DNA of 64,000 nt, from positions 160,001-224,000 of the forward strand of contig MHLM01000014.1 of NCBI GenBank assembly GCA_001821395.1, written 5' to 3'. Source of the stretch: Candidatus Lloydbacteria bacterium RIFCSPHIGHO2_02_FULL_50_18. Lineage in GTDB: Bacteria > Patescibacteriota > Minisyncoccia > Phycocordibacterales > UBA6899. Made by a program: the position numbers and the translations under genes. Each line of letters opens with the position of its first letter. The stretch's first letter is position 1. The notes under the pieces were generated by a model. The model saw nothing but the letters and a program-made list of their open reading frames with translations. It searched no databases and was not told the DNA's origin. Positions 32,884 through 35,580 of the stretch are shown one piece after another.

Positions 32884-33057
32884 GCACTTGCTCCCTTCGC
32901 CCTACGTCGTTCGCGTCGAAAACTTTTTGCTATTTTCTGACAAATAGCTCAATAGGGTTTCTTTTTGCGAAGCTGTCAAGCTAGGCATTTATCCAATCGC
33001 GCTTAGAATGGGGGGAGTTATAGTTCATTGAGAACAACTCTCTAAAGGAGAAATGGT

Positions 33058-34698
33058 ATGAGCACGAAAAAAACTGATGCTCCGCACACTGATGCGAAGC
33101 CTGAGTCAAGTGGTCATGGTTTTTGCCCGAAGTGTGGGAATGGCTGGCTCGTAAAGGACGGTCAGACCACGAACACTGGTAGTGAAAAACAGCGCTACCG
33201 ATGCAGTGCATGTGCGCATAAGACAACTGCACCTTCCGCAGAACATCCTGCCGACGTAGTGACGATGCGCAGTAGTTTGCCGACGGCAAAACGCTACATC
33301 ATCACCGCTGCACAAAATGCGACGCCAATTCATAGGCCGACGTGGCTATCACTTCTTTGTGCGGCAAAGTATTACGATGCCGAACTCGTTGTGATCCCCG
33401 GTCGGTATAAGAATCCGACCAGTCAGTGGACGCAAAACAATAAGGACCATGAATGGTGGGATGAGGCGGTTGTGCCATATTTGTGCAACGGATGGATCGC
33501 GCTCAATGACCGACTGTTGATCCTTGGTGACGTGAAGGTACAGTGGGCGGCACGTCAGCCGCTTGTTGGACTGGACGCACTCACCAAAGACAAGAGCGGC
33601 ATTGTTGGCCACGGCTCTCGCGGAATGCGATCCGTTGCAACTCCGCAACACAAGCATCCCAAGATCATGATGACGACGGGAGCATGTACGGTGCGCAATT
33701 ACACCGATACGAAGCAAGGCAAGCTCGGAAAGTTCGCTCACTGCCTCGGTGCTTTGATCGTTGAAGTGGACATCGATGATGTATTTCACATCCGTCAGTT
33801 GAATGCGACCAAGCAGGGGAGTTTCATTGATCTTGATATGGAATTCACTCCCGAAGGAGCCCGTCCCGCGAAGCCCGCCCTGTCGATCTCGATGGGTGAT
33901 ATTCACCAGCGATGGATCTTACCTGATGTGGTCAAGGCAACCTTTACTGCACCGGATAGTCTGGTGAAGATGATCAATCCGCGTTATCTCTTTTGGCATG
34001 ACACGGTTGATTTTCATTCGCGCAACCATCATCATCAAGATGATTGGATCACCAAATTCGCAAAGTGGAAATATGGGATCGAGTGTGTGCGCACTGAGGT
34101 TGAGGATGCGATACGTTTTGTGAATAAGCACACGACGCAAGGGCGCAAGTCGGTTGTCGTATCGAGCAATCATGATCGTGCGATCGCGCGGTGGTTGAAG
34201 GATGCTGATTTCCGAAATGATCCGGTGAATGCGCAGTTCTATCTCGAATGTGCGTATCGCGCAACGGAGAGTGCGCGACTGACCGAGGGCGGCGTCGCGT
34301 TTGATGACCCCTATGTGTCCTATGCACAAATGTTTGCGAAACCAAACGTGCAGTTCTTAAAGCCCGGGGAAAGCAAGGTGCTTGCTCAGGTCGAGTATGG
34401 ATTCCACGGTGACATTGGTCCCAATGGTTCGCGCGGGACGACCAAGAATCTCTCCAAGCTTGGAGTGAAGGTCACGAAGGGGCACAGCCACACGGCCGAG
34501 ATCATCGACGGATGCTACAGTGCCGGCAAATCGACCGGCATGCTCGAGTATGAGCATGGCGGACCGAGTAGCCACACCAACTCCCACGTTGTGCAGTATG
34601 CCAACGGTAAGCGAGCAATTATCATCATCATCAATGGACGGTATTGCTTGAAGCGTCCAAAGAGGGTAATGGTGAAATTATCTACGAAGCCTGTTTGA
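33058..34698 (+). CDS. fusion protein: IS1595/IS1-type transposase zinc-ribbon + calcineurin-like metallophosphoesterase
   Basis: N-terminal CPKCGNGWLVKDGQT..QRYRCSACAHKT; phosphoesterase motifs GDIHQ, SSNHD, GFHGD, GHSH. Confidence 0.65.
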   Translation: MSTKKTDAPHTDAKPESSGHGFCPKCGNGWLVKDGQTTNTGSEKQRYRCSACAHKTTAPSAEHPADVVTMRSSLPTAKRYIITAAQNATPIHRPTWLSLLCAAKYYDAELVVIPGRYKNPTSQWTQNNKDHEWWDEAVVPYLCNGWIALNDRLLILGDVKVQWAARQPLVGLDALTKDKSGIVGHGSRGMRSVATPQHKHPKIMMTTGACTVRNYTDTKQGKLGKFAHCLGALIVEVDIDDVFHIRQLNATKQGSFIDLDMEFTPEGARPAKPALSISMGDIHQRWILPDVVKATFTAPDSLVKMINPRYLFWHDTVDFHSRNHHHQDDWITKFAKWKYGIECVRTEVEDAIRFVNKHTTQGRKSVVVSSNHDRAIARWLKDADFRNDPVNAQFYLECAYRATESARLTEGGVAFDDPYVSYAQMFAKPNVQFLKPGESKVLAQVEYGFHGDIGPNGSRGTTKNLSKLGVKVTKGHSHTAEIIDGCYSAGKSTGMLEYEHGGPSSHTNSHVVQYANGKRAIIIIINGRYCLKRPKRVMVKLSTKPV

Positions 34699-34703
34699 AA
34701 GTA

Positions 34704-34734
34704 ATCCCGCGTCAATGACGCGGGGTTTTTGTTT
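34704..34734 (+). terminator. terminator CCCGCGTCA-A-TGACGCGGG + T-run
   Basis: directly after 34698 stop. Confidence 0.6.
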
Positions 34735-34771
34735 CACGGTGTTTAAAAACATGATATTGGGAAATTTTGTA

Positions 34772-34797
34772 AAAAAACACCCGCACGGGGGTGTTTA
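34772..34797 (-). terminator. probable terminator for ClpP-like gene
   Basis: ACACCCG..CGGGGGTGT imperfect stem, T-run on minus strand. Confidence 0.4.
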
Positions 34798-35463
34798 TTG
34801 GTATTGCGCGACTTCGTCAGCGAGTCCGATCTCAACCGCTTCTTCCGGGGTGATGAACCAGTCGAACTTCATTTTTTCTTTGAGTCGGCTACGTGACCAT
34901 GGTTTTTTCCCGAGGGCTTTAGCTTTCTCATTGATCTTATAAAGGTAGATGTCCTCCATGCTCGTGTTGATACGGTCAGATTCCTGTGCGTGTTTCTGAA
35001 AATCTTTTGAGTGTCCGTAGAAGCCGTCGTTTCCATAGTGGAGGAGCATCGTCGTGTTCGGTGCGATCACGCGCTTGTCCCCAGCTTGATAAATGACGGT
35101 TGCCGCACTCATGAGGTAGCCGTACGCTTCGATGGTGATGTGGTGTCCAGATCGTCTGATGCGGTCATAAATACCAAACATGTGATATGCATCACCTCCC
35201 GGATTGTTGATCTCAATGGTGATGCCAGGGTCCTGTCCTTCTAGGACCGGCCATCGTTCAAGTACCGAGAGTCCGGTTGCGAGTCGTTTCCACATGTCCG
35301 CATCGACGCCGGATTCACCGGAGTCAATGTCTACGGTGGCGCTTGCGAGAATGATCCGCCTTGTCGCGGGATTCACTCCATATTCAAAAAAGAGTTTCAG
35401 CTCATCATCTTTTGTGAGCGGCTTATTAAGAGACTTAGCGAGCGGTTTGCGTCGTTCTGTCAT
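34795..35463 (-). CDS. ClpP-family (S14) serine peptidase-like protein
   Basis: IEINNPGGD, GYLMSAATV (Ser), MLLHYG (His) aligned to ClpP INSPGG/GQAASMG/MIHQP. Confidence 0.65.
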   Translation of the reverse strand: MTERRKPLAKSLNKPLTKDDELKLFFEYGVNPATRRIILASATVDIDSGESGVDADMWKRLATGLSVLERWPVLEGQDPGITIEINNPGGDAYHMFGIYDRIRRSGHHITIEAYGYLMSAATVIYQAGDKRVIAPNTTMLLHYGNDGFYGHSKDFQKHAQESDRINTSMEDIYLYKINEKAKALGKKPWSRSRLKEKMKFDWFITPEEAVEIGLADEVAQYQ

Positions 35464-35580
35464 TTTTTGCTCCCGTTATTTCAGTTATTACATCTCATAT
35501 CACTATACGTACCTTTGTGTAGTTTGCAAACGAATCTGTTGTTCACATGATCAGGGGATACACATTCGTTCGAACGCGCA

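Follow-up and report, generated by a model that had tools for sequence, protein, structure and literature searches.

The gene described here, found in a 64,000-nucleotide stretch of a Parcubacteria (CPR) chromosome (the window), encodes a protein that belongs over its full length to the large A1 family of phage T5 (termed A1-like below) and is not a new fusion. It is probably a phage-derived putative DNase that has become fixed in a cellular CPR lineage, where it is loosely linked to a protease. The protein combines a zinc ribbon, a degenerate metallophosphoesterase (MPE)-fold domain and a further MPE domain, intact and two-metal, of the DP1/SbcD/Mre11 nuclease type; by analogy with T5 A1, it is most likely a metal-dependent DNase.

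Gene models and domain architecture

Both open reading frames proposed in the initial annotation are real: their coordinates, strands and convergence were confirmed, and every string quoted from them is present (Table 1). The A1-like and ClpP-like reading frames are separated by a 96-bp gap. With a candidate promoter ahead of each gene and a terminator-like hairpin behind it, the two are predicted to be separate, convergent transcription units. The stem behind the ClpP-like gene was also found by a scan of the forward strand.

Table 1. Features of the A1-like and ClpP-like genes (positions are those of the window).
Feature	Position	Strand	Description
Sigma-70-like promoter candidate, upstream of A1-like	32982..33009	+	TAGGCA-16-TAGAAT; consensus scan, pattern match only
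Ribosome-binding site of A1-like	~8 nt before ATG	+	AAGGAG; read from upstream sequence
A1-like gene	33058..34698	+	546 aa; T5 A1-family: Zn ribbon, degenerate MPE-fold domain and catalytic MPE domain
4-Cys zinc ribbon, N-terminal	33124..33225	+	aa 23-56, CPKC...CSAC; IS1/IS1595/IS256-N type
Degenerate MPE-fold domain	33271..33873	+	aa ~72-272
Catalytic MPE domain	33874..34653	+	aa ~273-532; motifs I-V
Motif I GDIH	33895-33909	+	GDIHQ = aa 280-284
Motif II WHDTVD	33994-34011	+	aa 313-318
Motif III SSNHD	34162-34176	+	aa 369-373
Motif IV GFHGD	34399-34413	+	aa 448-452
Motif V GHSH	34480-34491	+	aa 475-478
Terminator-like hairpin and T-run, directly after A1-like stop	34703..34727	+	11-pair stem, 7 G-C, then TTTTGTTT
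Terminator-like hairpin, directly after ClpP-like stop	34768..34796	-	ACACCCCCGTGCGGGTGT then TTTTTTT; intergenic sequence read
ClpP-like serine peptidase gene	34795..35463	-	222 aa; divergent subfamily with ESGVD insertion
ClpP-like triad D201	34861-34863	-	alignment
ClpP-like triad H142	35038-35040	-	alignment
ClpP-like triad S119	35107-35109	-	alignment
Sigma-70-like promoter candidate, upstream of ClpP-like	35502..35530	-	TTGCAA-16-TATAGT; pattern match only

All five MPE motifs (DxH, GD, GNH[DE], H and GHxH) are present in the A1-like protein and in order, as D281-x-H283, D315/D318, N371-H372-D373, H450 and H476-x-H478; the usual Gly is missing from motif II. In an alignment of 27 A1-like sequences (45-81% identity), D281, H283, D315, D318, N371, H372, H450, H476 and H478 are invariant. 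The four motifs quoted in the initial annotation (GDIHQ, SSNHD, GFHGD and GHSH) do not occur by chance, and nor does the ribbon; their order had been given correctly, but they had been numbered I, III, V and VI rather than the I, III, IV and V of the five-motif scheme, and motif II had been overlooked.

The region of about 200 residues whose fold the initial annotation had left unassigned is a second, degenerate domain of MPE fold. It has none of the DxH, GD, GNH[DE] or GHxH motifs; the two most conserved peptides of the A1-like family, ITAAQNATP and GRYKNPTSQW, both lie inside it. A tentative and rather improbable reading is that it contains a second site, non-canonical and either active or regulatory. 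An hhalign comparison of the N- and C-domains gave a probability of 0.5%, so that an internal duplication is not demonstrable by sequence.

The AlphaFold model of the A1-like protein (pLDDT 84.3, pTM 0.81) has the MPE beta-sandwich fold, and the zinc-binding segment is modeled as a two-strand ribbon (pLDDT 82-85). The Pfam Metallophos models did not match the protein at E<=1; the catalytic assignment is therefore based on the motifs and the predicted structure, and the protein appears to be too divergent from the MPE superfamily for sequence profiles. Searches of PDB sequences, whether with a single sequence or a profile, returned only chance-level matches to the ribbon and no solved A1 relative. 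The best structural matches were the DP1 proofreading exonuclease, polymerase B-subunits, SbcD and Mre11; others were an Ap4A hydrolase, YfcE, MJ0936, LpxH and protein phosphatases. Sequence searches of Pfam and the PDB detected no similarity between the A1-like protein and either Mre11/SbcD or PolD DP1/polymerase B-subunits, from which it also differs in lacking a capping or OB domain and in having the tandem degenerate MPE domain and the zinc ribbon.

The zinc ribbon and the transposase label

The ribbon scored 23.7 bits (E=5.4e-5) against the NCBIfam model IS1_IS1595_Zn (NF050000), just below the cut-off of 28, and 22.1 bits against NF048018; NF050000 was matched by 17 of the 27 A1-like family members at E<=1e-3 (best 6.5e-11). 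In its CxxC-(n)-CxxC ribbon with the QRYxC signature the A1-like family resembles the N-terminal zinc-binding domains of IS1 InsA, IS1595 and IS256. These matches, and the name "IS1 family transposase" that several orthologs bear at NCBI, would favor an IS1/IS1595-type transposase or its remnant. However, the match spans only ~35 residues, the remaining 470 belonging to the A1 family. The HTH and DDE body of IS1, IS1595 and IS256 is lacking (Pfam and NCBIfam searches found neither DDE nor any other transposase domain), as are the IS ends, there being no meaningful terminal inverted or direct repeats in the flanks. Unlike those elements, the gene is not repeated in the window, and its position is syntenic across genomes. 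A transposase identity is ruled out by domain content, the probability of this reading as a whole is negligible, and the NCBI label is wrong. The earlier observation of a transposase-type zinc ribbon and a metallophosphoesterase/Mre11-like catalytic domain in one protein, with no transposase domain, was upheld, but the fusion is no novelty: phages commonly carry a ribbon joined to A1 (55 of 79 viral ORFs).

Relationship to the phage T5 A1 family

The A1-like protein matched PHROG 1745 at E=7.7e-147, with aa 66-529 aligned to profile positions 79-539 of 542, and is 33% identical to T5 A1 over 471 aa (E=5e-66). T5 A1, a pre-early "DNA transfer protein" of the same PHROG, has the same two-domain core and the same five MPE motifs, with GDIH, HDxxD, SNHD, HG and GHxH aligned between the two proteins; it differs in the alignment at the RYKNPTS peptide of the N-domain, and has an unrelated stretch of ~94 residues where the A1-like protein has its ribbon. 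The N-terminal module is exchangeable within the family, being a ribbon in the window protein and an HTH or HNH-associated repeat in relatives. The A1 core is predicted to be the tandem of degenerate and catalytic MPE domains, joined to exchangeable N-terminal modules of DNA-binding type, and the module present here, the ribbon, probably binds DNA. With 1132 phage records, 2053 cluster representatives and 370 IMG/VR contigs, the A1 family is much larger, and much more widely spread, than the description "predominantly Demerecviridae" suggests. Some members are long (828-898 aa), and a Pfam search for a suspected intein-like insertion in these gave no match.

Ribbon-bearing A1-like proteins of uncultivated phages (among them those of the IMG/VR contigs L051 and L053-L056, and of the prophage-like L021 and L033) have the full architecture seen in the window. 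The nearest ribbon-bearing phage proteins are 49-53% identical and constitute the nearest outgroup of the CPR clade, and the donor phage would already have carried the ribbon-A1 fusion. The genes for these phage proteins have terminase, portal, capsid, tail, lysis and replication genes as neighbors; in the CPR clade the neighbors are housekeeping genes. Origin from a mobile element, one option in the initial annotation, is supported, the element being a phage.

T5 A1 is an old puzzle, in that a single protein destroys the host chromosome while phage DNA is spared. It is both necessary and sufficient for the degradation of host DNA, an action known in vivo only; in vitro nuclease activity has been published for no A1-family protein, and the T5 authors leave open that A1 is an activator of a host nuclease (bioRxiv 10.64898/2026.04.02.716235). 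T5 A1 is the product of a phage pre-early gene and works with A2 and Dmp, whereas the window gene lies on the chromosome of a CPR bacterium; no homologs of A2 or Dmp were found in the window or across 124 loci. Many phage members of the A1 family likewise lack A2. The earlier suggestion of a nuclease is supported, as a prediction, by the Mre11-like catalytic domain and the relationship to T5 A1. The initial annotation had counted a match to a housekeeping phosphoesterase family, in an unconserved neighborhood, as evidence against its reading; this was not what was found, because the matched family is that of a phage host-takeover factor and the neighborhood is partly conserved. No paper linking T5 A1 with CPR/Patescibacteria was found in the literature searched.

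Genomic setting and selection in CPR

The 21 A1-like homologs from CPR contexts form an exclusive clade in a neighbor-joining distance tree, which carries no support values. They are stand-alone genes, syntenic across genomes, and the dN/dS of A1-like in CPR (0.087) indicates purifying selection. The gene has probably been fixed in cellular chromosomes of a Parcubacteria (CPR) clade and inherited vertically. A strict peptide-pattern scan found it in about 20 GTDB species representatives, and it is therefore accessory, not core. GC content is flat across the window, the sole tRNA lies 25 kb from the A1-like locus, and no integrase, tRNA or repeat borders of an island were found at the locus.

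The ClpP-like neighbor and its linkage to A1-like

The ClpP-like protein matched Pfam CLP_protease with 79.8 bits (cut-off 20.2, E=3e-22) and PHROG 94, head maturation protease, at 9.2e-35. It scored far below every NCBIfam cut-off for ClpP (39 bits against 308.6 for TIGR00493) and for head-maturation proteases (81.6 bits against 120 for NF045542). The Ser/His arrangement that had been read from INNPGG (aa 85-90), GYLMSAATV (aa 115-123) and MLLHYG (aa 139-144) is real, and an Asp completes the predicted triad. When aligned to E. coli ClpP, the protein was 24% identical, S119, H142 and D201 coincided with the ClpP triad, and the first ~66 residues, the N-terminus already described as divergent, did not align. 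The fold signature and aligned Ser-His-Asp triad are common to ClpP and phage head-maturation proteases (MEROPS S14), from which an E[SP]GV[DE] insertion sets the ClpP-like subfamily apart. The triad is retained throughout the subfamily, viral copies having Glu in place of Asp. The protein appears to be an active serine peptidase, and its ClpP subfamily is divergent and associated with phages. Unlike head-maturation proteases, the phage ClpP-like copies do not adjoin recognizable portal or capsid genes in the stretch examined; neither capsid genes nor ClpX or ClpA were seen near the window copy.

An HMM search found a member of the ClpP-like subfamily no more than 5.5 kb from A1-like at 8 of the 21 CPR loci, in three different arrangements. 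In a viral control, ClpP-like directly followed A1-like, with overlapping or abutting frames, in 3 of 80 loci, the phages L091, L097 and L102, which sit on distant branches of the A1 tree. Most loci have no ClpP-like gene nearby (77 of 80 viral, 11-13 of 21 CPR), the two closest relatives (L006 and L007) have none at the position equivalent to that in the window, and in one genome (L010/L047) more than 10 kb of a single contig separates the two genes. The association, a check for which the initial annotation had called, is real and non-random, but loose. A conclusion of "no conserved A1/ClpP module", from tblastn with the fast-evolving window ClpP-like sequence, was dropped once the HMM search and viral control had given more cases. 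The ClpP-like subfamily travels with A1-like in some phages, so joint acquisition of the two genes is probable. The exact slot of the ClpP-like gene is taken in L006 by a peptidase of the HslV family, and the start of A1-like is overlapped in phage L052 by a gene for a Trypsin_2 peptidase; HslV-like and trypsin-like seeds recovered only their own loci, leaving ClpP-like as the sole recurring peptidase type. An extra 198-aa ORF in L013, unrelated to the HslV-like ORF, had no Pfam or PHROG match.

Function of the A1-like protein and alternative explanations

The recurrence of ClpP-like beside A1-like in phages and CPR suggests a testable nuclease-protease relationship. The peptidase could process, activate or remove the A1-like nuclease and so restrain a dangerous DNase, the two forming a single system even when each is transcribed on its own, with another peptidase able to substitute. 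The overlapping stop and start codons of A1-like and ClpP-like in the three phages, the neighboring CPR copies, the retained triad and the HslV and trypsin cases are consistent with such a pair. However, the last two are single instances, a peptidase is missing within 7-10 kb of most A1-like genes, and distance (>10 kb in L010/L047) and orientation vary, with separate signals for the window genes. ClpP-like also evolves much faster than A1-like (27-42% against 59-74% identity), and common phage ancestry alone could account for the linkage. A functional pair is rather unlikely.

The catalytic domain admits other readings. The MPE superfamily is functionally broad, and the structural matches to Ap4A hydrolase, YfcE, MJ0936, LpxH and protein phosphatases, together with an A1 activity known only in vivo, would allow a phosphatase or phosphodiesterase whose substrates are nucleotides, cyclic or dinucleotides, Ap4A or phosphoproteins, although this is unlikely. 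It is quite unlikely that the protein is a cellular repair or proofreading nuclease, analogous to SbcD/Mre11 or the PolD DP1 exonuclease and processing ends in reduced genomes. The closest structural matches and a stand-alone chromosomal gene under strong purifying selection fit that role, but no SbcC/Rad50-like or polymerase partner lies nearby in any locus examined, the sequence relatives are phage genes, the distribution among CPR species is patchy, unlike that of a core repair function, and the characterized homolog, T5 A1, destroys chromosomes and repairs nothing. Both genes are of phage origin, and nucleases and proteases are frequent in defense systems, which could suggest a novel defense module, as the initial annotation had proposed, or a prophage remnant of recent date that has no role in the cell. 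PADLOC 2.0, however, had no family match for either protein at E<=0.1, the neighbors are syntenic housekeeping genes rather than a variable "defense island", island boundaries are absent and GC content is uniform; no known defense system is supported. The dN/dS value and the exclusive clade argue against a decaying remnant, and this explanation is very unlikely in either form.

For a phage-derived DNase fixed in CPR, the favored role is the breakdown of imported, host or phage DNA in bacteria generally thought to rely on scavenged nucleotides. A more specific reading, tentative and rather improbable, is that these episymbiotic, ultra-small bacteria captured from a phage a DNase for host takeover, perhaps along with the protease as its partner, and retained it for their own ends. 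It might destroy host, imported or phage DNA for nucleotide salvage, or be sent into the host cell as a weapon. One argument against a DNase is that constitutive activity in the cytoplasm would poison the cell itself, and neither an immunity gene nor a partner gene was found for A1-like. A cell that encodes a CPR copy has to withstand it, which makes these copies candidates for biochemistry on specificity and self-protection. Most CPR proteins in the 27-sequence alignment carry short basic C-terminal tails, which most of the more distant members lack; such tails would fit export or DNA binding.

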